From Symploca sp. SIO1C2 (GTDB lineage Bacteria; Cyanobacteriota; Cyanobacteriia; Cyanobacteriales; Coleofasciculaceae), in assembly GCA_010672925.1 (NCBI GenBank), contig JAAHFP010000026.1, positions 1 through 64,000 of the forward strand: a DNA stretch of 64,000 nucleotides, written 5' to 3'. This document shows, piece after piece, positions 23,518-48,982 of the stretch. Under the pieces are notes generated by a model. It had not been told where the DNA came from. It searched no databases and saw only the letters and a list, made by a program, of their open reading frames with translations. The stretch's first letter is position 1. Each line of letters begins with the position of its first letter. Position numbers and translations under genes: made by a program.

Positions 23518-24627
23518 GTGAACCTATCCGAAAATTGCTATAAGACGTACTTCAGTTGGTTAGTCCCAATCCCTGTATCGGTTGGATCAGCACTAATTAA
23601 TAATTTTTCTTACATTCAAAAAAAATTTATCAATCAACAAATGAGAATAAATTCTAGTCTTGATAAGCAATCCACTAACTCAGTTTTCGCTCAAGTTGGT
23701 TATTACTTACGCCAAAAGTTGCACTATTTCAATCCCCACCGCTACCTTTGCGCCCAATTAGGACTGACAATTGCCGGAATGACATTATTTTTGTTCACTT
23801 TTACTAGGCTTACCATCAGTAGTATCCTATTTGCCGCTCTAGTTTACCTAGTGAGTGAACAGAAGAGAAAAAAAGAAGTGGCAAAACTTTCTACATCTCT
23901 CAACCAATTAGTAAGCACTTTGGCTCAACAGGAGCAAGCTATACAGATGACTAATCAAAAATTGAATCAAGAGTTGTGGGAGCGCCAAAAAACTGAGCAA
24001 TTTTGGAGAAAGACTCAGCAGCAATTTCGTCAAATAGCGGAAAACATCGAGGAAATTATTTGGATTGCTTCCTTTGAGTTTAATCAATTGCTGTATATTA
24101 GTCCCGCTTACGAGAAAATTTTTGGTCGTTCCTGTGATCTACTCTATCAAGATCCTACTTCTTGGCTAGAGTTAGTTCATCGCCGGGATCGCAAAAGTTT
24201 AAAAAAAGCACTAGAGATACACAAGAAACAAGCACAACCCATCAGCATCAAGTTTAGGATTGTCCGACCCAACGGAACAGTTCGTTGGCTCTGGTCTCAA
24301 ACCTTTCCTGTTAAAAATCAGCAGAACAAACTTTACAGAAGTACGGGGATTGTAGTTGATATTACCCAGCAGAAGCAAGCTGAAGCAGAAATGCGTCGCT
24401 CACTAGAGCAAGAGCAAGAACTCAACGAGCTCAAGTCTCGTTTCATCTCTATAGCTTCCCATGAATTTCGCACTTCTCTCAACACAATCATGTCTTCTGC
24501 TGAGATTTTGCAAAATGCTGATCTTAACTTAATGCAACAGAACAAATATAAATATGTAGAAAATATTAAGAGTTCTACCGAAAGAATGATACAAATCATT
24601 GAAGAATTTCTTCTAATAGAAAAGTAG
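23518..24627 (+). CDS. Membrane PAS/HisKA sensor protein that ends right after the DHp domain and has no HATPase_c domain. It is either a truncated histidine kinase or a phosphotransfer-only protein
   Basis: N-terminal TM helices, a PAS-like region (WIASFEFNQLLYISPAYEKIFG), and the H-box SHEFRTSLNTI. The ORF stops 40 aa later. The N/G1/G2 ATP-binding boxes are absent. GTG start at 23518, with an alternative ATG at 23641. Confidence 0.6.
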   Translation: MNLSENCYKTYFSWLVPIPVSVGSALINNFSYIQKKFINQQMRINSSLDKQSTNSVFAQVGYYLRQKLHYFNPHRYLCAQLGLTIAGMTLFLFTFTRLTISSILFAALVYLVSEQKRKKEVAKLSTSLNQLVSTLAQQEQAIQMTNQKLNQELWERQKTEQFWRKTQQQFRQIAENIEEIIWIASFEFNQLLYISPAYEKIFGRSCDLLYQDPTSWLELVHRRDRKSLKKALEIHKKQAQPISIKFRIVRPNGTVRWLWSQTFPVKNQQNKLYRSTGIVVDITQQKQAEAEMRRSLEQEQELNELKSRFISIASHEFRTSLNTIMSSAEILQNADLNLMQQNKYKYVENIKSSTERMIQIIEEFLLIEK

Positions 24628-24735
24628 AGACAAAAAATCAAGTTCAATACAACAAAATTAAATTTATTTTTTACCTATGGCGAAGATAACAGTGGTAAAA
24701 AATCTAGAATAAATATAAAATAACCTCATGGACAA

Positions 24736-26493
24736 ATGAAAAAAATACTAGTTATCGAAGATGAAGAACTGATCCGAAATAACCTGATGGACATCTTGCA
24801 GGATGAAGGATTTAAGGTAATTAATGCAGAAAATGGTCATCAAGGCCTTGACGTAGCTATCACAGAAAAGCCTGATTTGATTTTGTGCGATGTTAATATG
24901 CCAGGGTTAGATGGTCATGGAGTATTGAATATTCTTAACCAAGACCCAACTATGGCAGCTATTCCCTTTATTTTCCTGACAGCAAAAGCGACCAAAGACG
25001 ATTTTCGTCAAGGTATGGAACTAGGTGCAGATGACTATCTTACTAAACCATTCACCAAGCCTGAACTACTTAAAGCGATCGCCAGTAGGCTGAAAAAACA
25101 ATTTACTAAACAACAACGTTATCGAGCGATGCAAGAGTTCTACAACATTGAACTTCAGCACGCCAAAGAACAACTCAATTACTTGAGTCACTATGATCAT
25201 CTCACAAAGCTACCCAATCGCTTGGCATTAAGGGAGCTGTTTAGGCAAGCAAAATCTCTAGAAACAGAGAAAGAACAACTAGTCACAATTTTGTGTCTGA
25301 GTTTAGATCGATTTTCCCAAATCAACGAAAACTTAGGATATCAATTCGGCGACTTGTTACTCCAAGCTGTTGCTCAAAGAATTCAATCTTGTGTTAGTTT
25401 ACCTAACAAAGTTGTTCGCTTAGATGCTGATCGGTTTGCCATTATTTTAGCAACAACTAAGCATAAAAAAGATGCTGTCAAAATTGCCCAGACAATTTTG
25501 GAAAATCTTTCTCAAACGTTTAATTTATCGGGTCAAGAAGTCTTCATTACTGCCAGCATTGGTATGGCGTTCTATCCTCGTGACGGTCAAACTATTGAAC
25601 CACTGCTCAAAAATGCTACCATCGCTATGGTTCAGGCTAAGCGACAGGGAGGTAATCAATATCAGTTTTACTCAGTGGCTTTCCATATTGGTTTCTCTGA
25701 TCGTCTTGCTCTACAAACTAGTTTGCGTTATGCCTTGGAAAGGCAAGAACTCGAAGTTCACTATCAACCCCTAGTCAGTCTCAAAACAGGGAAAATTGTT
25801 GGTGCTGAAGCCTTAGTACGTTGGCGCCATCCAGAGAAGGGATTAATTCTACCCGGTAAGTTTATTACTGTTGCCGAAGAAACAGGTCTGATTGTCCCGA
25901 TTGGAGAATGGGTATTGCGCAAAGCTTGCCAGCAAGCCCAAATCTGGCATAATAATGGCTTTGCACCTTTACGGCTAGCAGTAAATATCTCAGGTCGCCA
26001 ATTTAATCAAATAGAATTACGCCAAAAATTAGTCCATATTATTGGTCAAACAGGTTTTAACCCTCGATATTTAGAGTTAGAACTAACTGAAAGCTTACTA
26101 GTACAAAATGTTGAAGTAGCAATTAAAAGATTGAAGGGTTTAAAAACTTTAGGTATCAAAATTGCTATTGATGATTTTGGTACAGGTTATTCTTCTTTAA
26201 ACTATTTGCAACAATTTCCCTTTGATATTTTAAAGATTGACAAATGTTTTATCCATCGTCTTGTAGCTCATACTAACCAAGCAGCGATTACCAAGACTAT
26301 TATCCAAATGGCCAAAAATCTCAATCTAAGAGTAACTGCCGAGGGAGTTGAGTCTCCCAGTCAGCTATCTTTTATTTACCGACATCAGTGTGATGAAATG
26401 CAGGGTTATATTTTCAGTCGTCCAGTTCCAGCTCATGAGTTTGAGCAATTGTTAAAGAGCAAAAAACGTTTATCTTTACCTAGAATGGTTTAG
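24736..26493 (+). CDS. Response regulator: REC + degenerate GGDEF + EAL (likely a c-di-GMP phosphodiesterase)
   Basis: REC: LILCDVNMPGLDG...LTKPF. The GGDEF position reads RLDADRFAIIL, which is degenerate. The EAL domain is intact (GAEALVRW, DDFGTGYSSLNYL, KIDKCFI). Confidence 0.85.
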   Translation: MKKILVIEDEELIRNNLMDILQDEGFKVINAENGHQGLDVAITEKPDLILCDVNMPGLDGHGVLNILNQDPTMAAIPFIFLTAKATKDDFRQGMELGADDYLTKPFTKPELLKAIASRLKKQFTKQQRYRAMQEFYNIELQHAKEQLNYLSHYDHLTKLPNRLALRELFRQAKSLETEKEQLVTILCLSLDRFSQINENLGYQFGDLLLQAVAQRIQSCVSLPNKVVRLDADRFAIILATTKHKKDAVKIAQTILENLSQTFNLSGQEVFITASIGMAFYPRDGQTIEPLLKNATIAMVQAKRQGGNQYQFYSVAFHIGFSDRLALQTSLRYALERQELEVHYQPLVSLKTGKIVGAEALVRWRHPEKGLILPGKFITVAEETGLIVPIGEWVLRKACQQAQIWHNNGFAPLRLAVNISGRQFNQIELRQKLVHIIGQTGFNPRYLELELTESLLVQNVEVAIKRLKGLKTLGIKIAIDDFGTGYSSLNYLQQFPFDILKIDKCFIHRLVAHTNQAAITKTIIQMAKNLNLRVTAEGVESPSQLSFIYRHQCDEMQGYIFSRPVPAHEFEQLLKSKKRLSLPRMV

Positions 26494-28932: not shown

Positions 28933-30531
28933 ATGATGAAATTTTTCCGTAAATTGCGATGGATGACTTTAGGAATAGTATTTTCCCTAATCCTTCATCT
29001 ATTACCAATTTTCACATTGACTCTTTCTGCTCAGTCTCAATCATCTTCTTCAGAAGGAAACTGTATTGCCGATGCTAATCTGCAAGGGTTAACTCGCGAG
29101 CAACTTCTGGAACAAGGTGACGAGTGTTTCCTAGAAGGAAATCGTGAAATAGCAGAACAATTCTATCGTCGAGCTAAGCCTCCTTTTAAAAAGCCAAAAC
29201 CTCAAGATAGATTTCCACTTTCTAAAAAATCTTCTGAAGAATTTGAAATTTTAGATCCCATTTTTGATGAAGAGGAATTATCTATCAGAGGTCGAACATT
29301 TTGGTCATCGTACCAAGAGTCTAAAAATAAACCAAAACTAGCAAGTGCTAAGTTTGCGCCTTTGTTTTTTTTAATTAAAAGTGATTCTAACTTCATTCCT
29401 GGCTATTTTGCCTTAGTTAACACTTTCAAAGAACATCCAGAATGGTGCAAGCGTGAAGCTAATGCCAAGATGTGTAACAATCAGCCTCACAATGCCCTTG
29501 AAGTTTTAGAACAAGGTACTGCTTTATATCCTGAAGAACCTAATTTGGTAGTAGCTAAAATTGATGAGTTAGTCACAGAAAAAGAGTTTCTAGAAGCTTC
29601 TATCGAAGCACGTCAATATTATATCAGTACAGGGGATAACGAGTTTGAAGAAAAAGCAGAAGAATATTTAGGACGTTATAAATCTGATTTAAGCTCTGAA
29701 TTAAAAGCAGCATCAGCAATTTGTGTTATTGCGAGTTCTTTGTTAGGGAATTTAAACAATTGTCAGATTCTAGGATTGTTGCTAAAAGGTGAATCGGAAT
29801 ACGGGAGGATTGTAGCTGAACAATTCAAAGAACAGCTACCGATAGTAGAGAAGCCTGAAGTCCTTGCTTATGTGGAAGATACGGCTTCTGCATTCCTTCC
29901 ATATATGGGACGAAATGACTTTGAATTTGAATTTAACGTGGTTGAAGATAATAGTCTCAATGCTTTTGCTTTACCAGGAGGAAAAATATTTATTAATACT
30001 GGTGCAATTCTTGGCACAAACTCAAGAGCAGAATTAGCGGGATTACTTGGTCATGAAGTTGCTCATTCTATCTATTCTCATACTTATCGAGATGCAGCAC
30101 AAGGAGCAATTTTAAATTCTTTTGGGGATATTTTCTTGAAGAATCTGCCCTATGATATCGAGATCTTAGGAAACAATTTTTCGGATATTCTCAAGTTAGG
30201 TATTACGATGCTTAGCAAAGCCTATAACAGAGATCAGGAAAGGGAAGCTGATATTTTAGGAACACGAGTTTTAGCTCAATCCGGTTATGCTGCTGATGGC
30301 TTGTACAATTTTATGGTGACAGTCCAAAATGTAGAAGAAGCTAATCAACCACCACCACAGGAAGGAGCATCTTTTCAAGATTTAATTCAGCCATTGTTAT
30401 CAACTCATCCAGAAACCCAAAACCGCGTCAGTTATTTACGAGAGTTAATTCGTAGTAATGGTTACAATCGTTATGTGTTAGAAGGTGTAGAAAAACACAA
30501 AGAAATGCAGAACTTGATTCAAAATTCCTAA
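28933..30531 (+). CDS. M48-family zinc metallopeptidase with an N-terminal signal peptide or anchor and a TPR-like region
   Basis: HEVAHSIYSH is the HExxH motif, with a downstream READILG glutamate. N-terminal hydrophobic helix MTLGIVFSLILHLLPIF. Confidence 0.75.
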   Translation: MMKFFRKLRWMTLGIVFSLILHLLPIFTLTLSAQSQSSSSEGNCIADANLQGLTREQLLEQGDECFLEGNREIAEQFYRRAKPPFKKPKPQDRFPLSKKSSEEFEILDPIFDEEELSIRGRTFWSSYQESKNKPKLASAKFAPLFFLIKSDSNFIPGYFALVNTFKEHPEWCKREANAKMCNNQPHNALEVLEQGTALYPEEPNLVVAKIDELVTEKEFLEASIEARQYYISTGDNEFEEKAEEYLGRYKSDLSSELKAASAICVIASSLLGNLNNCQILGLLLKGESEYGRIVAEQFKEQLPIVEKPEVLAYVEDTASAFLPYMGRNDFEFEFNVVEDNSLNAFALPGGKIFINTGAILGTNSRAELAGLLGHEVAHSIYSHTYRDAAQGAILNSFGDIFLKNLPYDIEILGNNFSDILKLGITMLSKAYNRDQEREADILGTRVLAQSGYAADGLYNFMVTVQNVEEANQPPPQEGASFQDLIQPLLSTHPETQNRVSYLRELIRSNGYNRYVLEGVEKHKEMQNLIQNS

Positions 30532-30591
30532 GCCTATTAGTTCATGCTCAATCTCTGTAGGTGGGCAAACTGGCTTACTTATTTATTGGTA

Positions 30592-32100
30592 CTATTTTAT
30601 TGGACAGAAAATAGTATAATTCCACTCAGTTCCTGACTCTTCAATATTTCCTGTTAAAACAACTTCAACGCGACCTGAATTTCCTTGAAAAGGAATTGAT
30701 ATGCTATTGCTACCAGAAGTAAAACCGGTATTATAAAGCTCCTTGCCTTCATAAAAAACTTGTAGTTTATCTTTGGCGGTATACATTTCATATTCAAGAT
30801 GAATAACTCCTTGATTTGAGGTTAACTGAATAATTCTTTGATCTCCTTCTTGACCACCACTAACTTGCTGTTTATTGCAAAATTCTAAACCTCTATTGTC
30901 AGCATCAATAATTTCAAAGTCAATAGATTGGCGTTTGCTTTCTACGTCAAACTCTTCAATTTCACCTACAGTCTGTTTACAAAAGTCAGGAGTAGATTTA
31001 TAACCTGAATCTACTCTAATTCCCTGTGGTCTTTTGGCTGATTTCGCAATAACTGCACCCCAAACAATTTCAAATTCAGCACAACCACTAGTACTACGAC
31101 TGTTAACTGCAACTTCAGGATGATCTATGTTGTCTATTGGAGATTGGTTATTTCCTTGGTTTAGGATGCTTGGATCAGTAATTAACTCTATCGCTACATC
31201 ACCTGGTTGGTAAACTTGTAAAGCACAAGAAGTTGCGCCTTGAGTCATTGCTTCATCCCATTTTTGTTTTGCTAATTCTTTTAATTCTGAACCAGTTCCT
31301 TTGGTTATAAAAAGTTCACGAGGATTACATTCAACTACTGCGGTTAATTCTGGTTCTTGACTTTTCCAATAACTTAGAGTCAGAGGGATACATTGACCGT
31401 TAGTGGGATTACTTTCGCATTTTTCCATAATTTCCTGACAAGGGTCTTTGCTTTGAATGTCTAACCAACTAGCACCTGATTCTGCAACGACACTACAATA
31501 ATAAAAAGTTCTGTTATAATTATATGATTGATTAATTAAAAGATGTTTAAATAATTGTCTGGCAACAGCAGGATATTGCCAGTTCGGTTGTTGACTATTG
31601 CTCTTCCAGTCCCCAGATCTTACTTGAACTGCTCTTTCGCAAGCACTAGCTCTATTAGCAGCTCGTTTCCAACCAAATAAATAACTACCTTGTTGTAAAT
31701 TACAGGGAAAATTATAAATACTTGGATCTGAATGGGGAAGAGTTTTTACAAACAGATTAAGATTTTGGTTACTTCTTGATAAAAATTCTAAAATGGCACG
31801 AGTTTGGCTGTTACCATTAACATTAATTTTATCTCTATACTTTTCCATAATTGAATCTTCTTGAGCCTGATAACGCCGTCCATTTTTTGTCACCCACATT
31901 TCTGGTTTGCCAATAATCTTTCTAACAACAGCTTTTTGGGGAACTTCTGCATAACTGGGACTAATTAAGATTAACCAATAATAAGGAATGAGTGCAGCTG
32001 TAGCAGCACGCAAGAAACGGTTAATTTTATAATTAATTTCTGATTTTGATGTTGGTTTATTCATAGATTTACTCTTGATTAATTGGTTTTGCACTAGCAT
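30592..32100 (-). CDS. Cys-rich extracytoplasmic protein (signal-anchor at the N-terminus), unknown function. The third gene of the AT-rich NTPase cassette
   Basis: 502-aa ORF overlapping the upstream NTPase gene by 32 bp. TM/signal segment AATAALIPYYWLILISPSYA. About 20 Cys. AT-rich like its neighbours. An alternative ATG (MNKPTSK) is at 32064. Confidence 0.55.
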   Translation of the reverse strand: MLVQNQLIKSKSMNKPTSKSEINYKINRFLRAATAALIPYYWLILISPSYAEVPQKAVVRKIIGKPEMWVTKNGRRYQAQEDSIMEKYRDKINVNGNSQTRAILEFLSRSNQNLNLFVKTLPHSDPSIYNFPCNLQQGSYLFGWKRAANRASACERAVQVRSGDWKSNSQQPNWQYPAVARQLFKHLLINQSYNYNRTFYYCSVVAESGASWLDIQSKDPCQEIMEKCESNPTNGQCIPLTLSYWKSQEPELTAVVECNPRELFITKGTGSELKELAKQKWDEAMTQGATSCALQVYQPGDVAIELITDPSILNQGNNQSPIDNIDHPEVAVNSRSTSGCAEFEIVWGAVIAKSAKRPQGIRVDSGYKSTPDFCKQTVGEIEEFDVESKRQSIDFEIIDADNRGLEFCNKQQVSGGQEGDQRIIQLTSNQGVIHLEYEMYTAKDKLQVFYEGKELYNTGFTSGSNSISIPFQGNSGRVEVVLTGNIEESGTEWNYTIFCPIK

Positions 32101-34414
32101 GACAGCTATCTATTCGCTCGATTACAGAATTAAAGGGAAAATCAAAAACTGACTCTAACAAAGTTCCACCATAGGATGATGTTTTATTAATTATTTGCCC
32201 TGTTTTTGTGTCCAATATTTCTTCTTCTCCTAATCTAACTAACTCTTGACAATCTAAGTTTTCAAAATGAGAATTAGTCCCATACCAGCCACAACGGTCT
32301 TTAGTGTACTTGCGCCATAACTGTTCAATTTTTTGTAGTGTTTCACAAGGTATTCTTTCTGCTTCTTCTGGTTTATCTAAAAATCCATCGTTATTTAAGT
32401 CTCCATAATAACCAAAAGGACGCATTAAAATTTTATACGTGGTTTTAATTGCCCCTTCTGTATATTGCTTTTCTAAGTTACCAGGAGCAGGCTCTTCTCG
32501 CTCTCCAATTAAGCCTTGTTTGAGCTGTTCTTCAAGAAACGATAGTCGATGTTCGTGAACCATTTTTAGGAGAGATGCATCTGCTGTTTTTTGGATTTCT
32601 TCCAGTTTAGTTTTTGAAAAATTAGGAAATTCTTTTGGCTTTTCTACGATACGTTTTTGCAGTTTGTCTGCAGCTGTTAAAATGTAGTTATAATAAGCAA
32701 TTGCTCGATCTATATCTCCTTTTTCTTTGCGCTTACTTGCTTCTTGTAAAAAATCAGGCAAAATATCTAGCAAATCTGAGCTAGGTAGTTCAAGACCAAC
32801 GGCAACATCTCTTACAACTTGTAGTGATGCTTTTCGCTGAGACCAAGCAAATATTCCAGCTATGGATGCTATTATACAAAGTGCAGCTACTGATACAGCT
32901 AAAATTGTGATTTTCTTCGCTGCTTCTAACTCTCGCTGTCTTTGGTACTCTTTTTCTCTGGCTAAGTAATCGCGCTGCTCAATACTTTCTTGAATAAATT
33001 GATTACTATCTTTGTCTAAACTTCCAAAAGCTTCTTTGTTAATCAGTTCAAAAACTCGCTCTAACTTAGAACCACTCCAAAGTTCATCTTTGGCCTTTTC
33101 TAAATTTTGTTTTTTTACCTCACACCATTGATAAGTATCATCAATTAATCTTTTTCTTAAAAGAATAACTTCTTCCTGCTCTTCAATTAAATCTCTTATA
33201 AATTTCCAAGAGCGGAGCAATTCTTCGTGAGCTACTTCAACAGTAGTTGATTTGTCTCTGCCACTAACCAAAAGACGAGACTCAATAAGTTTATTTAAAA
33301 CACTTTCTTTAATAGGATCATTTATAAATTGAGACTGTTCTACTCTTCTACTAATAGGTTCTTTTTTTACTATATCGATTAATTCTATAAAAATTTTTTC
33401 AGCTACTTTTTTCTCTTGAGTATTTAGTTTTTCTTTGTATATATATTCTGCTTGCTTTTCAAGTGCGCCACCAACACCGTCTAAATCATCATAAATTTCG
33501 ATATTTAAAACTCTGCTGTTATCCGATATACCAGATTTTTCCCATAATAAATCTAGAGTGTATTGCAATAAAGGTAGAGAACCAGCCTGTTTATCAAAAT
33601 CACTAATAATTTGTTCGACTAAACCTTTTTCAAAAGTCACTCCGTTTCTAGCCGCAGGCTCAGCGATAGCTAATCTGAGTTCAGACTCATTCAGATCTCT
33701 GATTAATCGAATTTGTTCTTCTATTTCGTTAATGAAATCAGCATATTCTCGAAGATTGTCCAAAAAATCAGACCGCATCGCCAAAACCAGCTTTAAAGAG
33801 CTATCCTTCTGTCTAATCAATAAAACAAGATTAGTAATAAATTTGTCGCGTTCTATCTTCGGGGTAATTGTAAATAGTTCTTCAAACTGATCTATAAAAA
33901 TCAGCCATTGTTGAGAATTGTCTTTTAATTTGTTAAAAAGTTTAATTAAACAATCACTACTTTTTTCTTCAAAAATTTGATTAGCTATGTTTTTATGGTT
34001 ATTTTGCAGACTGTTATACAAAGATTTAAAAGGATTTTTGTAGGGAACAAAAACTGATTTTATTAACTTGGAAGTTCCCCACTCATCAGATAAATAAGGG
34101 ATGATTCCCGCCTGAACTAAAGAAGATTTACCACTACCTGAAGCCCCCAGAAGCAGAAGTAAATTATCTTGTTCTAAGTCCTTGCTTAATTTAGTAATCC
34201 ATTGCTCTCGACCAAAAAATTTATCTTTATCTTCAGGTTCAAATTTTTTTAACCCTAAGTATGGAGAACCTTTTTTGAGTCTTTGACTATGAATTTCAGC
34301 TTCAGACTTTTGAGCTATGATATACTGGTTTATAACCTCAGCTTTGACATCACCAAGAATACCTTTAACATCGCCGCCAATATCACAAATATAAGGAAAA
34401 ATTGGAGCACTCAT
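32069..34414 (-). CDS. Membrane-anchored P-loop NTPase (STAND-like) with an N-terminal D[IV]KGI[VL]GD[IV] motif and a ~250-aa C-terminal extracytoplasmic domain
   Basis: Walker A LLLLGASGSGKSSLVQAGIIP is preceded by FFGREQ. Walker B WLIFIDQFEE. A single TM helix ITILAVSVAALCIIASIAGIFAW sits at about aa 500. The N-terminus is MSAPIFPYICDIGGDVKGILGDVKAEV. The gene is AT-rich. Confidence 0.7.
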   Translation of the reverse strand: MSAPIFPYICDIGGDVKGILGDVKAEVINQYIIAQKSEAEIHSQRLKKGSPYLGLKKFEPEDKDKFFGREQWITKLSKDLEQDNLLLLLGASGSGKSSLVQAGIIPYLSDEWGTSKLIKSVFVPYKNPFKSLYNSLQNNHKNIANQIFEEKSSDCLIKLFNKLKDNSQQWLIFIDQFEELFTITPKIERDKFITNLVLLIRQKDSSLKLVLAMRSDFLDNLREYADFINEIEEQIRLIRDLNESELRLAIAEPAARNGVTFEKGLVEQIISDFDKQAGSLPLLQYTLDLLWEKSGISDNSRVLNIEIYDDLDGVGGALEKQAEYIYKEKLNTQEKKVAEKIFIELIDIVKKEPISRRVEQSQFINDPIKESVLNKLIESRLLVSGRDKSTTVEVAHEELLRSWKFIRDLIEEQEEVILLRKRLIDDTYQWCEVKKQNLEKAKDELWSGSKLERVFELINKEAFGSLDKDSNQFIQESIEQRDYLAREKEYQRQRELEAAKKITILAVSVAALCIIASIAGIFAWSQRKASLQVVRDVAVGLELPSSDLLDILPDFLQEASKRKEKGDIDRAIAYYNYILTAADKLQKRIVEKPKEFPNFSKTKLEEIQKTADASLLKMVHEHRLSFLEEQLKQGLIGEREEPAPGNLEKQYTEGAIKTTYKILMRPFGYYGDLNNDGFLDKPEEAERIPCETLQKIEQLWRKYTKDRCGWYGTNSHFENLDCQELVRLGEEEILDTKTGQIINKTSSYGGTLLESVFDFPFNSVIERIDSCHASAKPINQE

Positions 34415-34425
34415 TTTTCTATTTA

Positions 34426-34797
34426 TTAACTAATATTCTGGTCAATATTTCCACCACTAATATCCCCAACAATACCTTTAATATCACGAGCTACACTTAT
34501 ACTGAATTTACCTGCTGCTGACTCTTCAGGTTTTTCCTCTTTCAACAACTTCTGAGCTGCCTTAATAATTTCTTGATCCTTATCAGCACCCGATTCAACT
34601 AATTTCTTTTTAAGTGGTGCTTCATAGATTTCCGGATCTGTTTCATGTTCTTCCAGAATCATTTCTGCTTTTGGCTCACCCGCGAACTTACGCTTAATCA
34701 AAGCTTTTAATCCTTGATAAGCATCTGGGGCTGCATCACCAGCAGCTTTTGCTGCCCCAGCAACCAATGCAGCAAGAATAATAGAAATAGGTTCCAT
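34426..34797 (-). CDS. Small protein (123 aa) ending in ...ARDIKGIVGDISGGNIDQNIS. The first gene of the cassette
   Basis: Clean ORF with an Ala/Lys-rich N-terminus. It stops 11 bp before the NTPase start. Its C-terminal motif is repeated at the NTPase N-terminus. Confidence 0.6.
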   Translation of the reverse strand: MEPISIILAALVAGAAKAAGDAAPDAYQGLKALIKRKFAGEPKAEMILEEHETDPEIYEAPLKKKLVESGADKDQEIIKAAQKLLKEEKPEESAAGKFSISVARDIKGIVGDISGGNIDQNIS

Positions 34798-46033: not shown

Positions 46034-46700
46034 AAGCCAATGTTCATCAGATTGTGCTTATTGTTTGAGCCAAGGTAAAGTATCCAATTCATCTTTCCAG
46101 CGACGGGCTATTTCTTGCACTGCTGTTTGTCGCATAAGCCAACTGTCATCAGATTGTGCCAGTTGTTTGAGCCAGGGCAAGATATCAGGTTCGTCTTTCC
46201 AGCGACGGGCTATTTCTTGCACTGCTGCCTGTCGCACAGACCAATTGTAATCAGATTGTGCTTGTTGTTTGAGCCAAAGTAAAATATCAGGGTCATCTTT
46301 CCAGAGAGATGCTATTTCTTGCACTACTGTTTGCTGCACAAGCCAACTGCTATCAGATTGTGCCTGTTGTTTGAGCCAAGGTAAAGTATCTGAGTCATCT
46401 TTCCAGCTATTGGTCATTACTAGCACTGCTGTTTGTCGCACAAGCCAACTGCTATCAGATTGTGCCTGTTGTTTGAGCCAAGGTAAAGTATCCAATTCAT
46501 CTTTCCAGAGACGTGCTATTTCTTGCGCTACTACATATCGCACAAAGCAACTGTCATTAGATTGCACCTGTTGTTTAAGCCAAAGCAATATATCAGGTTC
46601 GTCTTTCCAGCTATTGGTTATTACTAGCACTGCTGCACCTCGCAGATCCTCATTTTTACCAGAATGCGCCCATTGTTTGAGCAGGGGTAAGGTTTCCGGA
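45440..46700. repeat. Tandem array of ~10 near-identical ~100-110-bp units encoding HEAT-like repeats (WLKQQAQSDxSWLVRQTAVQEIARxWKDxPDTLP)
   Basis: The ttgtttgagcca(a/g)gg...cacaagccaactgctatcagattgtgc unit recurs at about 45640, 45955, 46051, 46163, 46262, 46370, 46467, 46571 and 46672. The plus-strand ORFs 45963..46250 and 46269..46703 are antisense artefacts. Confidence 0.8.
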
Positions 46701-48982
46701 TGATCTTGCCAAATATGTACTACTGCTGCAACTGCTTGGCTACGAATCTCGCGAACTAAATTTGCTTCCTTGTCAAATGGTGGGTAATAATAATTGAGGT
46801 CATATTTAGTTAAACCTTCAAGCTCCTCAAAGAGTTTATTTGCCGTTATCGCAATTCCCGATAAATTTCTCATTTCGGCAAGACAGTCAGCCGCCAGAAA
46901 TACGTTCATAAATCTGTCAGCTTCACCATCTTGGCTAATCAGATATTCGATAACTTGAGCAGTAAATCGAGGATCAATCATCCCGGCAATCAACCGTAGC
47001 ACTTCATGCCAAGACTCATCCTGCCAATGCTTGCCAAAAACCTCAGTTTTAAGTTCCTCAGTTGACAAGGTTTGCGTCTGTTGAAACTGCCAGACAAATT
47101 CCCAAGCACAGAAGTATTCCAAAAATGTCCGATGGACAAAGCCATAGGAATCAGCCCCCAGGAAGCATAAGATAAAATTGCGACCCCGCAGTTGTTCAAT
47201 CAGCAACCGAGCAACTTTTCTGGCATTACTGACTTCGATAGTTTTCAAATAGTCACTCAGAATCTTCTCTAAATCATCTGCCTGAATCAGATTACCCGCC
47301 AAACCCTTGTCTGCTGACTGCATAAAATGAGCAATCTGACGCAGCATCGCTTGCTTATCTTTATAATCAATAGTGACTGGATCAACTCTGGGGTCTTCCA
47401 ATAATTTTCGTTCCACATCCCACTGATGCAGCAATACTCGCGAGGCTTGGTTATATAATTCCGGTCTATCCCTGGGTAATTCTTGATTACGATTAAGGAT
47501 CGCCATCATTGTCAGCAGTAGAGGATTGCCTGCTAATTCCGCGATCGCTTTTGAAGTATTGATTGACTGTTGCAAACGTTCTCGCTTTCTCAGTTTATCT
47601 GCTTCATCGGTAAAAGTTAACTCATGCCAGCGATAGATAAAATCCTTTATTTGCCTTGAGTCCAAATCTTGCAGCAGGAAGTGACGAAATTCGGCATCTC
47701 GTAGCCGTTGATGCTTGTAGCCAATAATCCGGGAAGTGACAATTACCCGCACTTGGGGATAATCATTAGTAAAGCGATGGATATCCGTAATTACCTGCTC
47801 CCGTTGCGTAGCCTCGAATACCTCATCTAAACCATCGAACATCACCAAAACCTTACCAGTTTGCAGCTTTTCCTGGAGTTGATGCTGATTGAGGCGACAG
47901 ATAACGTTACCCTTGTGGAAGAATTCTAACAGATCCTTACATTCCCCAGAATTGCGATCGCGATTATAAGTCCGCAGTTCAATTAATAAAGGAATCGGTA
48001 GTTCAATGGCATTATTCAGAGGACTCCTTGCCCAGTTTAGAGCCAAGTATTGCAGGAAAATAGACTTGCCAGAACCCGGTTCCCCTAAAATTACCAGATA
48101 CCGCAGCTTGTCATCTTCCCAGATTTGACTAACCAGATCCAAAATTGAGCTTACTGGCTGTTGATAATAAACTTGCCGGTGTCGTGCCAAGGCTTCTGGT
48201 GCAACTTCTACTGCCAGTTGATTACTCTCCCGCAATCTTCGTTGATGTTCCTTGGGTATTTCGTAAACTTGGGGTAAGAATTCCTGGCATTCTCGCACGT
48301 TTTGGGCAACAAATACTTGCCAGACCTTGAGTTTTTCCCGATAATCGTAGACACTGGTATCCAGACTATCTAAATTTAGATTAGCGTAACGCTCCTGTAG
48401 TCCTTCTTGATAAGCCTTGAGGTTAAAGTCGGGAATAATTCCAGCAGCTTCTTGAGTATTCTGCGCGATCGCTTCCTGAATCTCTAACTCCAGAATACTC
48501 CTCAATTCCGGTGATTGCTTAATTATTCGCTTGACTTCCTTGAGATATTCCTTCGCCACCCCATTCCAGTCAAATTCCGTCGGCATCCCTTGCAGATGCT
48601 GCTGCCGCCAAATTCTCCCTAACTGCTTACCATCTAGAGTACGGCAATCTCTAACAAAAGCTTGACCTAACAGTGGTTTAACATCCTGATGCTTGATAAA
48701 CTTGCCCATTGGTATTTGGTAGTTGTCTCGAATCTCAGCACCAGAGAGATTACACTCAAATTCTAATTCATCTTCTACTATCTTCAAAAATTGCTGTAAA
48801 GCTTCACCTACTGACTTTTTCAGTACCCCTGCCTTAGCTGACTCTACTCCTCCTTTGATACAGTCCTTGAAGAAGTCTTTGACGTAATCTTCTAATGCTC
48901 CCTTACCTAATTCCAGCAGAATATCCTTAAATAACAAATCCTTTAACAGAGAAACTCCCAAAGCTGTCCAAGGTTCTACCAT
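46058..48982 (-). CDS. NACHT-family NTPase with C-terminal HEAT (PBS-lyase-like) repeats. NLR-like STAND protein, probably pseudogenised by a premature stop
   Basis: Walker A ILGEPGSGKSIFLQYLA. Walker B VLVMFDGLDEV. The rest of the NACHT core is present and is followed by the repeat array. Confidence 0.7.
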   Translation of the reverse strand: MVEPWTALGVSLLKDLLFKDILLELGKGALEDYVKDFFKDCIKGGVESAKAGVLKKSVGEALQQFLKIVEDELEFECNLSGAEIRDNYQIPMGKFIKHQDVKPLLGQAFVRDCRTLDGKQLGRIWRQQHLQGMPTEFDWNGVAKEYLKEVKRIIKQSPELRSILELEIQEAIAQNTQEAAGIIPDFNLKAYQEGLQERYANLNLDSLDTSVYDYREKLKVWQVFVAQNVRECQEFLPQVYEIPKEHQRRLRESNQLAVEVAPEALARHRQVYYQQPVSSILDLVSQIWEDDKLRYLVILGEPGSGKSIFLQYLALNWARSPLNNAIELPIPLLIELRTYNRDRNSGECKDLLEFFHKGNVICRLNQHQLQEKLQTGKVLVMFDGLDEVFEATQREQVITDIHRFTNDYPQVRVIVTSRIIGYKHQRLRDAEFRHFLLQDLDSRQIKDFIYRWHELTFTDEADKLRKRERLQQSINTSKAIAELAGNPLLLTMMAILNRNQELPRDRPELYNQASRVLLHQWDVERKLLEDPRVDPVTIDYKDKQAMLRQIAHFMQSADKGLAGNLIQADDLEKILSDYLKTIEVSNARKVARLLIEQLRGRNFILCFLGADSYGFVHRTFLEYFCAWEFVWQFQQTQTLSTEELKTEVFGKHWQDESWHEVLRLIAGMIDPRFTAQVIEYLISQDGEADRFMNVFLAADCLAEMRNLSGIAITANKLFEELEGLTKYDLNYYYPPFDKEANLVREIRSQAVAAVVHIWQDHPETLPLLKQWAHSGKNEDLRGAAVLVITNSWKDEPDILLWLKQQVQSNDSCFVRYVVAQEIARLWKDELDTLPWLKQQAQSDSSWLVRQTAVLVMTNSWKDDSDTLPWLKQQAQSDSSWLVQQTVVQEIASLWKDDPDILLWLKQQAQSDYNWSVRQAAVQEIARRWKDEPDILPWLKQLAQSDDSWLMRQTAVQEIARRWKDELDTLPWLKQ

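Follow-up and report, generated by a model that had tools for sequence, protein, structure and literature searches.

Results

In the present study, we analysed a stretch of 64,000 nucleotides from the cyanobacterium Symploca sp. SIO1C2 (contig JAAHFP010000026.1, referred to here as the window), and concentrated on a group of genes that encode a small protein, a membrane-anchored nucleoside triphosphatase (NTPase) of the STAND type and secreted partners. The list of open reading frames (ORFs) confirmed three minus-strand genes at 30592-34797, all co-directional, to which an earlier note on this DNA had drawn attention; the ORFs, the gap of exactly 11 bp between the collinear genes 1 and 2, the quoted DNA strings and the NTPase motifs were all found as claimed there. 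Gene 1, for the small protein, is an ORF of 123 aa (34797..34426, minus strand) with an AGGAG Shine-Dalgarno sequence 9 nt upstream, and gene 2, for the NTPase, is an ORF of 781 aa (34414..32069, minus strand). Gene 3 (30592..32064, minus strand) encodes a Cys-rich secreted protein, probably of 490 aa when translated from M13. The 32-bp overlap that had been reported between genes 2 and 3 exists for the longest ORF of gene 3 (32100..30592, 502 aa), but it is probably a start-codon artefact of choosing the longest ORF, because the M13 start, whose ATG lies at 32064 and 4 nt past the NTPase stop codon, yields a normal signal peptide; the NCBI product of gene 3 also has 490 aa. A fourth gene, which the earlier note had missed by limiting the system to three genes and which is part of the module, lies at 28933..30531 on the plus strand, convergent with gene 3. 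Its product is a secreted zinc peptidase of family M48 that also has a TPR region; it contains the HEVAH motif, and its Pfam match to Peptidase_M48 (PF01435, E 3.4e-27) was above the cut-off. The NCBIfam match to BepA was partial (E 1.9e-23) and reached 83 bits against an equivalog cut-off of 570, so gene 4 is an M48/TPR protein and not BepA itself. The gap of 60 bp between the convergent genes 3 and 4 holds a terminator-like hairpin (30557..30582, plus strand), which is only suggestive; in a promoter/terminator scan of the region, the number of such sites was not above that in shuffles.

The base composition of the block 28933-34797 was clearly low in GC (0.351 vs 0.425 in the remaining window), the third lowest value among 233 segments of equal size. 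The GC content at third codon positions (GC3) was 0.20-0.25 in the genes of the block vs 0.36-0.40 in the flanking genes, which encode a ClC channel, a methionine aminopeptidase, an MBL-fold protein and chorismate synthase. The low-GC block reaches past 30592-34797 and takes in the convergent M48 gene, whose GC3 of 0.248 is at the same low level as that of genes 1-3. That the block is an acquired island, as had further been proposed, would agree with its low GC3, which does not by itself demonstrate acquisition; the whole window contained no tRNA gene, and no search was aimed at integrase genes.

The small protein starts with a hydrophobic helix (MEPISIILAALVAGAAKAAG, in which position 2 is E), continues with some 95 aa of conserved domain and closes with a C-terminal tail that is variable in the family and here ends in ...ARDIKGIVGDISGGNIDQNIS. 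We found 382 homologues, essentially all of them cyanobacterial, and the alignment showed that the first ~95 residues are highly conserved in this family. The precomputed Pfam annotation assigned the HetE-N domain (PF20701) to the window protein and to 120/120 relatives among the matches listed, while the older Pfam model used locally matched six of 22 relatives weakly (best E 0.0014). A literature search for PF20701 gave no result. Kaur et al. 2021 (PMC8195603) treat HetE-N as an uncharacterised effector domain, which replaces EAD10 on TPR-GreA/B-C-PIN proteins and is also N-terminal in fungal HetE. Bell/HeLo-type domains have a hydrophobic N-terminal helix with an acidic residue at position 2-3, and Bell domains are also found fused to NLRs. 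As far as the sequences indicate, the names HetE-N, Bell and 'Babybell' all refer to executioner domains that are helical and related to one another, and the small protein is predicted to be a membrane-disrupting effector of the HetE-N/Bell type. EACC1 was considered as another identity for this protein and was ruled out by its different fold description, its caspase partner and the lack of a Pfam match (E<=1). Scans of the small and the Cys-rich proteins with Pfam, NCBIfam and PADLOC gave nothing usable.

The motif D[IV]KGI[VL]GD[IV] is common to the C-terminus of the small protein and the N-terminus of the NTPase, which begins MSAPIFPYICDIGGDVKGILGDVKAEV. On the effector side it occupies residues ~98-123 (FSISVARDIKGIVGDISGGNIDQNIS; 34429..34506, minus strand) and forms a BASS-like tail, which we call class A; the receptor-side copy, aligned to this tail, covers NTPase residues ~8-33 (YICDIGGDVKGILGDVKAEVINQYII; 34316..34393, minus strand). 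The two DNA copies are identical at 22/27 nt and lie about 100 bp apart. The local alignment of the two termini scored 48 vs 20.2±3.9 in shuffles, and a score of 48 was reached in 0/5000 shuffles. The 26-mer on the effector side is composed of I6 S4 G4 D3 V2 N2 among others, with K1 and without P or L, and the receptor-side motif contains I6 G4 D3 V3, with L1 and without P; both copies therefore fit the composition expected of BASS, which is enriched in G/N/Q/V/I and depleted in P/L/K.

Class A, written as GDIKGIVGDISGG.I.QNIS, was present in 64 of the 120 closest relatives of the small protein. Other tail classes are carried on the same constant domain, namely FQGEVKGAQVGDRNTQTNTF, NFQGF.GENLGTV.QTF and GDVYGVAGRNEGTVNQTF, further ISGGTVQGLTQQNTGTI.QNF, NVKYAATSGSGNASIS and KLADKIGVVAQDSS, and more besides. 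In every locus examined, the gene immediately downstream opened with the same motif class, and this gene usually encoded nSTAND1 with WD40 repeats or nSTAND1 with a transmembrane helix and ectodomain. For a quantitative comparison we used 51 non-identical pairs of HetE-N and downstream genes, taken from 80 genome loci, the window and earlier loci. The mean score between tail and N-terminus was 63.5 for cognate vs 32.4 for non-cognate pairs, with the cognate partner ranked first in 13/51 pairs and among the top five in 30/51. The motif class changed in step on both genes (A/A in locus L001, B/B in L004, C/C in L006), and class A was also N-terminal on the partner NTPases of L001 and L012 and in the cluster representatives P0198 and P0231. 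These results support the earlier claim of a shared motif, which is conserved and co-varies between the NTPase and its small partner, and we regard it as a real adaptor, whose function would be the one proposed below.

Sister proteins with the same N-domain carry the tail '...GAQVGDHNTQTNTF', which matches BASS3/RHIM-like entries such as 'GVQVGDHNTQTNTF', and other sister tails (KLADKIGVVAQ) match BASS5. In the alignment of the HetE-N family, Pfam recognised EAD10 in two of 22 tails (E 1.5e-4) and RHIM in one of 22. It thus appears that at least some EADs in the sense of Kaur et al. are what Dyrka et al. call BASS motifs; the terms HetE-N and Bell domain, and the EAD label for at least some tails, likewise appear to be different names for the same objects. 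The strings KGIVGD and KGILG were absent from Table S2 of Dyrka et al., which was the table compared, the BASS11 sequences being left out; this is expected, because that screen took only the neighbours of NB-ARC and NACHT genes. Since class A is absent from this table and its sisters carry BASS3- and BASS5-like tails, it may be described as a new motif class on a known scaffold. Two tandem class-A copies were seen on the effector side only, in Microcystis (L064, L070-L074 and L077), Okeania (L044 and L068) and P0051, for example GDIKGMVGDGTFKGIAGDISGGNISQNIN, and are reminiscent of the two pseudorepeats of HET-s and also of BASS1/6; most of the tandem-motif HetE-N homologues had no large downstream ORF under the criteria used.

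The NTPase contains a full-length nSTAND1 module at residues 51-436 (33107..34264, minus strand; Pfam PF20703, E 4.1e-102), with 343 bits vs a cut-off of 27.1 and with model positions 1-377 of 379 covered. The motifs FFGREQ, GASGSGKSS (Walker A) and IFIDQFEE (Walker B) are present, and the NACHT model (E 1.2e-5) stayed with 25.6 bits under its cut-off of 26.7. The assignment to STAND-like NTPases could thus be made more precise, nSTAND1 being a STAND clade that was defined computationally by Kaur et al. (PMC7159879). A KAP NTPase, or another family with housekeeping partners, had been named as the case that would speak against a conflict system; there was no KAP among the Pfam and NCBIfam matches, and the single transmembrane helix sits after the complete nSTAND1 module and not inside it.

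This helix comprises residues 504-522 (ILAVSVAALCIIASIAGIF; 32849..32905, minus strand) with a Kyte-Doolittle mean of 2.67. It is followed by a C-terminal domain at residues ~531-781 (32072..32824, minus strand), composed of a helical subdomain and a putative GUN4-like core, in which C690, C708, C722 and C771 are near-invariant. Exactly one transmembrane segment was found in 47 of 56 family members, and the 15-residue flanks contained 5.2 K+R on the N side vs 1.8 on the C side (Wilcoxon p = 4e-6). Because of the single helix with these flank charges and the four near-invariant cysteines, the domain is predicted to be extracytoplasmic in an N-in/C-out orientation, in agreement with what had been proposed before, and is called the ectodomain here. 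An exhaustive profile search yielded 197 cluster representatives of the ectodomain family, in which the domain is always C-terminal. Among the 56 long members, 55 carry nSTAND1, and about 26 have an N-terminal effector recognised by Pfam (CHAT in 10, caspase in 9, TIR in 5-6, trypsin in 1). Of 55 members with an intact start, 32 have a short beta-prone N-terminus in many motif classes, three of them in the class of the window, and 23 have a long one. As judged from this domain order, the family follows NLR logic, with an effector or adaptor, then a NOD, then a sensor. A Foldseek search of the ectodomain model against the PDB gave no match at E<0.2.

The Cys-rich protein begins with a signal peptide ending in ...SPSYA/EV and has 10 invariant Cys. 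Its N-terminal beta domain bears the signature 'Y.FPC...GW...C', and its C-terminal part is a beta-sandwich. Its AlphaFold2 model (pLDDT 70.6) comprises several beta domains, and Foldseek found for it only generic beta-sandwiches (GOLD, collagen-binding, CPE C-terminal and CUB). We make no functional call for this protein, since the matches are generic and the alignments of Cry-toxin length have a structural similarity (TM) score of about 0.14. A FecR-like reading of its N-domain was a pattern seen by eye, had no Pfam support and was not used. A word-index search gave nine close homologues besides the window protein. Among 16 ectodomain-encoding loci with downstream sequence, metagenome loci included, the gene directly after the ectodomain encoded a signal-peptide relative of the Cys-rich protein in 15, with the signature 'Y.FPC...G..I.W....C' shared across loci in the N-terminal beta domain. 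The gap between receptor and partner was 4-106 bp in 14 of these 15 loci and 1112 bp in L095. Because a secreted relative follows the ectodomain in 15/16 loci, the two can be regarded as a conserved two-gene unit, and the functional link that had been proposed for the third gene is supported. In addition, the M48/TPR gene adjoined a clear Cys-rich homologue in 7/7 loci (the window, L008, L009, L010, L011, L092 and L096), and it may be viewed as an addition in the sub-lineage of the window. In the window, L008, L011, L092 and L096 the gene upstream of the Cys-rich gene ends in a transmembrane helix and ectodomain, 0-11 bp away, that of L092 slightly overlapping the Cys-rich gene as called. The cytoplasmic part before the ectodomain differs between these loci and is motif-nSTAND1 in the window, TIR in L008, CHAT-nSTAND1 in L011 and the motif only in L092; the receptor of L096 is a 1120-aa nSTAND1 protein with an N-terminal extension of ~385 aa that was not scanned.

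The full gene combination was found only in the window, in L092, which has no NTPase, and in L017, where the partner is a distant one. At L092 (6725-11004, a TARA metagenome scaffold), a HetE-N protein with the tail 'NVKYAATSATGNAS' is followed by a motif-transmembrane-ectodomain protein whose motif matches this tail, a Cys-rich protein and a convergent M48 gene; its receptor has no NTPase and contains one in-frame TGA, so that this locus is either a minimal natural version of the module or a decaying one. At L009 (3236-7603) and L010 (3551-7671), the pair of Cys-rich and M48/TPR genes occurs without an ectodomain gene and is divergent from genes for a secreted LRR and pentapeptide-repeat protein and a CHAT-TPR-LRR protein; the secreted pair can therefore serve other conflict-type partners. 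Thus, the trio described in the earlier note is not fixed, but each of its two links is conserved elsewhere, and the cassette is best viewed as modular, with the effector-receptor link and the link between receptor and secreted partner conserved separately.

Several loci among the relatives deserve mention in their own right. In L004 (7389-11126) and L006 (2832-5003), the partner of HetE-N is an nSTAND1-WD40 protein with a hydrophobic helix between NTPase and WD40, e.g. AWGIAAGSLVAVVISAGLGLTAW; should this helix cross the membrane, the WD40 repeats would be placed on its non-cytoplasmic side. An apparent third gene of L006 is a frameshifted continuation of the WD40 repeats and not a partner, and the 326-aa gene after the L001 receptor had no evident similarity to the Cys-rich protein by reading of its sequence. 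In L104 (3860-7218), 'SGNYNERIE.DYIQ' occurs in a receptor and in its unrelated upstream protein, and in L101 (766-3599) and L103 (4923-7747) a 172-174-aa upstream protein ('MPKYSV...') is hydrophobic at its C-terminus and rich in G/N/S over an internal stretch. These three loci suggest that further effector families are coupled to nSTAND1 receptors with a transmembrane ectodomain by paired motifs.

Discussion

From the domain identities, the topology statistics, the pairing and co-variation of the motifs and the gene linkage, we read the locus as a four-gene conflict or cell-death module with an amyloid-type switch on a transmembrane nSTAND1 receptor, which is probably horizontally mobile, and we give this reading a probability of about 60%. 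The receptor would consist of an N-terminal adaptor motif, a cytoplasmic nSTAND1 module, a transmembrane helix and, on its periplasmic or lumenal side, a GUN4-like domain with disulfides, and genes 3 and 4 may supply a co-sensor and a processing enzyme for this outer domain. In the proposed sequence of events, an extracytoplasmic signal would alter the outer domain, perhaps as a bound ligand or through proteolysis in which genes 3 and 4 take part; the change would pass the membrane and the NTPase would oligomerise. The clustered N-terminal motifs could then take a cross-beta fold and template the matching tail of the small protein, whose helical domain would be released and attack the membrane with its hydrophobic N-terminal helix, so that the cell dies or arrests and the rest of the filament is protected. 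For the outside-in step, this scheme draws on the topology statistics, the conserved cysteines and the gene linkage, whereas from motif pairing onward it is modelled on the experimentally studied BASS1/3/11 and HET-S/NWD2, from which amyloid formation by the motif is also judged probable.

The closest eukaryotic parallel is HET-S/NWD2 of Podospora anserina, where a motif at the N-terminus of the NLR serves as template for the prion-forming tail of the effector, a pore-forming HeLo protein. This effector may carry two pseudorepeats, a feature also seen in the Microcystis and Okeania relatives described here; unlike the present system, HET-S/NWD2 is eukaryotic, has a cytoplasmic NACHT-WD40 receptor and acts in allorecognition. 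Among bacteria, the Bell/BASS pairs of Dyrka 2020 (bioRxiv 10.1101/2020.01.06.895854) also combine a helical effector of ~120 aa and a hydrophobic N-terminal helix with a G/N/Q/V/I-rich tail of ~25 aa, which is repeated on a collinear STAND NTPase; those pairs come from filamentous bacteria and ours likewise from a multicellular cyanobacterium, and the sister tails of our family are BASS3- and BASS5-like. In that study, 91% of the pairs were collinear and 57% lay within 10 bp, statistics with which the collinearity and the 11-bp gap of the window agree. In contrast to those pairs, the receptor here is nSTAND1 instead of NB-ARC or NACHT with TPR/WD repeats, its sensor stands behind a transmembrane helix where theirs is a cytoplasmic array of TPR/WD repeats, two accessory genes encode secreted proteins, and the class GD[IV]KGI[VL]GD[IV]SGG is not in Table S2. 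BASS1 and BASS3 are reported to form fibrils and prions, and BASS11 is the motif behind the abortive infection that Bab/Agp brings about in E. coli (Ibarlosa 2024, bioRxiv 10.1101/2024.11.07.622273). The Bab/Agp pair, which like ours consists of a small Bell-related effector and an adjacent sensor sharing an amyloid motif, was shown in that study to signal by amyloid templating, with movement of the effector to the membrane and killing of the infected cell; it differs in being cytoplasmic and prophage-borne and in its motif family.

The nSTAND1/EAD systems (PMC7159879, PMC8195603) share with the window the NTPase clade, short shared adaptors, CHAT, caspase, TIR and trypsin effectors, GUN4 as a cyanobacterial add-on and HetE-N as a named effector domain. 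The transmembrane ectodomain architecture, an obligate secreted partner, the M48 peptidase and amyloid adaptors are not described in the text of these two papers that was searched. The EACC1-caspase systems (Kaur 2020; Evans et al. 2025, PMC12642450) are similar in that a small constant gene for a membrane-active effector stands 5' of a large variable sensor gene, and some of their second components have transmembrane helices and extracellular domains. However, EACC1 has an alpha+beta fold and is activated when a caspase cleaves it, whereas the present system has no EACC1 Pfam match (E<=1), no protease domain on the receptor and a coupling by shared motif. The proposal of conflict-system logic with short adaptor domains agrees with the EAD principle of Kaur et al., but the view of the architecture as undescribed has to be given up, because an effector with a matching motif on an adjacent NTPase is the published Bell/BASS arrangement and the EAD principle, and nSTAND1 and HetE-N are Pfam families. 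On the other hand, our literature search found no description of the class A motif, of nSTAND1 as a receptor with an amyloid motif, or of a GUN4-like transmembrane ectodomain with an obligate secreted partner and M48 peptidase, and a 2026 STAND survey and a deep-learning paper on amyloid signalling motifs had no mention of this architecture or motif. An outward-facing STAND sensor is not without precedent, since some STAND sensors diversified by diversity-generating retroelements are predicted to be periplasmic, as noted briefly in a paper in PNAS of 2024.

Some of the evidence weighs against the reading of a four-gene amyloid-switched module. The local Pfam scan gave no HetE-N match for the small protein of the window, PADLOC has no model for the small protein, the NTPase or the Cys-rich protein, and three alignments run as profiles against PDB sequences matched nothing significantly, GUN4 and Bab included. 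The NTPase motif of the window has diverged in its second half, with KAEV vs GG.V in relatives, which is the reason why the window pair scores 48, below the 64-66 of L001 and L012. The predicted topology is based on charge statistics and cysteines. The exact combination of genes 1, 2 and 3 is rare, and the link between effector and receptor needs neither gene 3 nor gene 4, because homologues have a WD40 C-terminus instead. Furthermore, there is no published experiment on the class A motif, nSTAND1, this ectodomain or the Cys-rich protein.

We also considered that the shared motif is a plain homotypic adaptor of the EAD kind, which docks stoichiometrically, for example by beta-strand pairing, without amyloid templating, so that the effector is recruited or released and not converted. 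Co-variation and adjacency are equally expected of any homotypic adaptor, Kaur et al. describe the EAD principle for nSTAND1-containing systems, and EAD10 matches two tails of the family, the amyloid reading of class A being drawn by analogy. Against such docking, the motif has only ~25 residues, is rich in G/N/Q/I/V and free of P, and the same constant domain bears the BASS3/RHIM-like and BASS5-like sister tails, BASS1 and BASS3 being those reported to form fibrils and prions. The tandem motif confined to the effector in Microcystis, Okeania and P0051 mirrors the pseudorepeats of HET-s and BASS1/6, and EAD10 occupies the site at which BASS11 later proved to be amyloid. This explanation is possible, but in our judgement unlikely.

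Another explanation is a trans-envelope stress or nutrient signalling system, in which the outer parts monitor the status of the envelope or of tetrapyrroles, the NTPase relays the signal and the small protein is a non-lethal membrane factor. M48/TPR peptidases such as BepA, to which gene 4 has its partial match, act in envelope quality control, GUN4 domains bind tetrapyrroles, the flanking genes are housekeeping genes, and the N-domain of the Cys-rich protein looks FecR-like by eye, though without support from Pfam. In other proteins, however, nSTAND1 joins the same ectodomain to CHAT, caspase, TIR and trypsin domains, which are hallmarks of conflict systems; relatives adjoin genes for CHAT-TPR-LRR, TIR and DUF1822 proteins; and wherever HetE-N/Bell relatives have been tested, they are cell-death effectors. 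The atypical GC3, the patchy distribution and the count of only ~10 close Cys-rich homologues argue in the same direction, and we consider a signalling role of this kind improbable. That the similarity of the motifs is a functionless by-product of duplication, gene conversion or a split Bell-NLR fusion, as the 22/27 identity of copies ~100 bp apart and the occurrence of fused Bell domains might suggest, is very improbable and essentially excluded by the co-variation of motif classes across pairs, for the arrangement recurs in 51 non-identical pairs with unrelated classes changing on both sides, most DNA differences are either synonymous or conservative, a pattern in line with purifying selection on each of the two copies, and a motif is also found on the unrelated upstream partner of the same receptor family in L104.

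Under the reading as an amyloid-switched module, a more specific role may be imagined for the receptors. The periplasm of filamentous cyanobacteria is reported to be continuous along the filament, and receptors with nSTAND1, a transmembrane helix and a disulfide-bonded GUN4-like ectodomain, acting with the obligate secreted Cys-rich partner and, in the lineage of the window, an M48/TPR peptidase, might detect a periplasmic damage cue, e.g. tetrapyrrole or pigment debris or envelope damage from a lysed neighbour, and trigger an amyloid-templated pore-forming executioner. We offer this as a speculation that is, on balance, quite unlikely; if true, it would be a prokaryotic damage-signal receptor in which surface-receptor logic is joined with NLR logic. 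The bacterial immune receptors of the NLR-like or STAND type that are known so far (Avs, bNACHT), like the Bell/BASS pairs, are regarded as sensing phage proteins in the cytoplasm. Here the same signalling logic, in which a central NTPase is combined with an N-terminal amyloid-type adaptor or a fused caspase/TIR/CHAT effector, would stand on a receptor with a predicted periplasm-facing sensor that is genetically tied to a secreted partner. If the amyloid-switched module is real, amyloid signalling reaches a third STAND clade, nSTAND1, by a new motif class common in cyanobacteria, and the family of ~200 clusters would provide a defined and testable system for outside-in activation of STAND NTPases. 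In that case, the version at L092 also suggests that the ectodomain alone may gate amyloid nucleation.

Other features of the window, apart from the module, were also noted. An 880-aa bacterial homologue of the eukaryotic Major Vault Protein is encoded at 5800-8442 (plus strand), with Vault repeats at E 3e-64 and an MVP shoulder at E 5e-54, and it adjoins a gene with a cyclodipeptide-synthase-like match (4471-5607, minus strand, E 8.5e-10) in a low-GC stretch at 3-6 kb. A second STAND NTPase of 974 aa (46058-48982, minus strand) combines NNH2 (NACHT N-terminal helical domain 2, E 1e-61) with NACHT and HEAT repeats. At 23518-26493 (plus strand), a 369-aa PAS-HisKA ORF that ends inside HisKA is followed by a REC-GGDEF-EAL protein, and this ORF may be a split or truncated sensor kinase.

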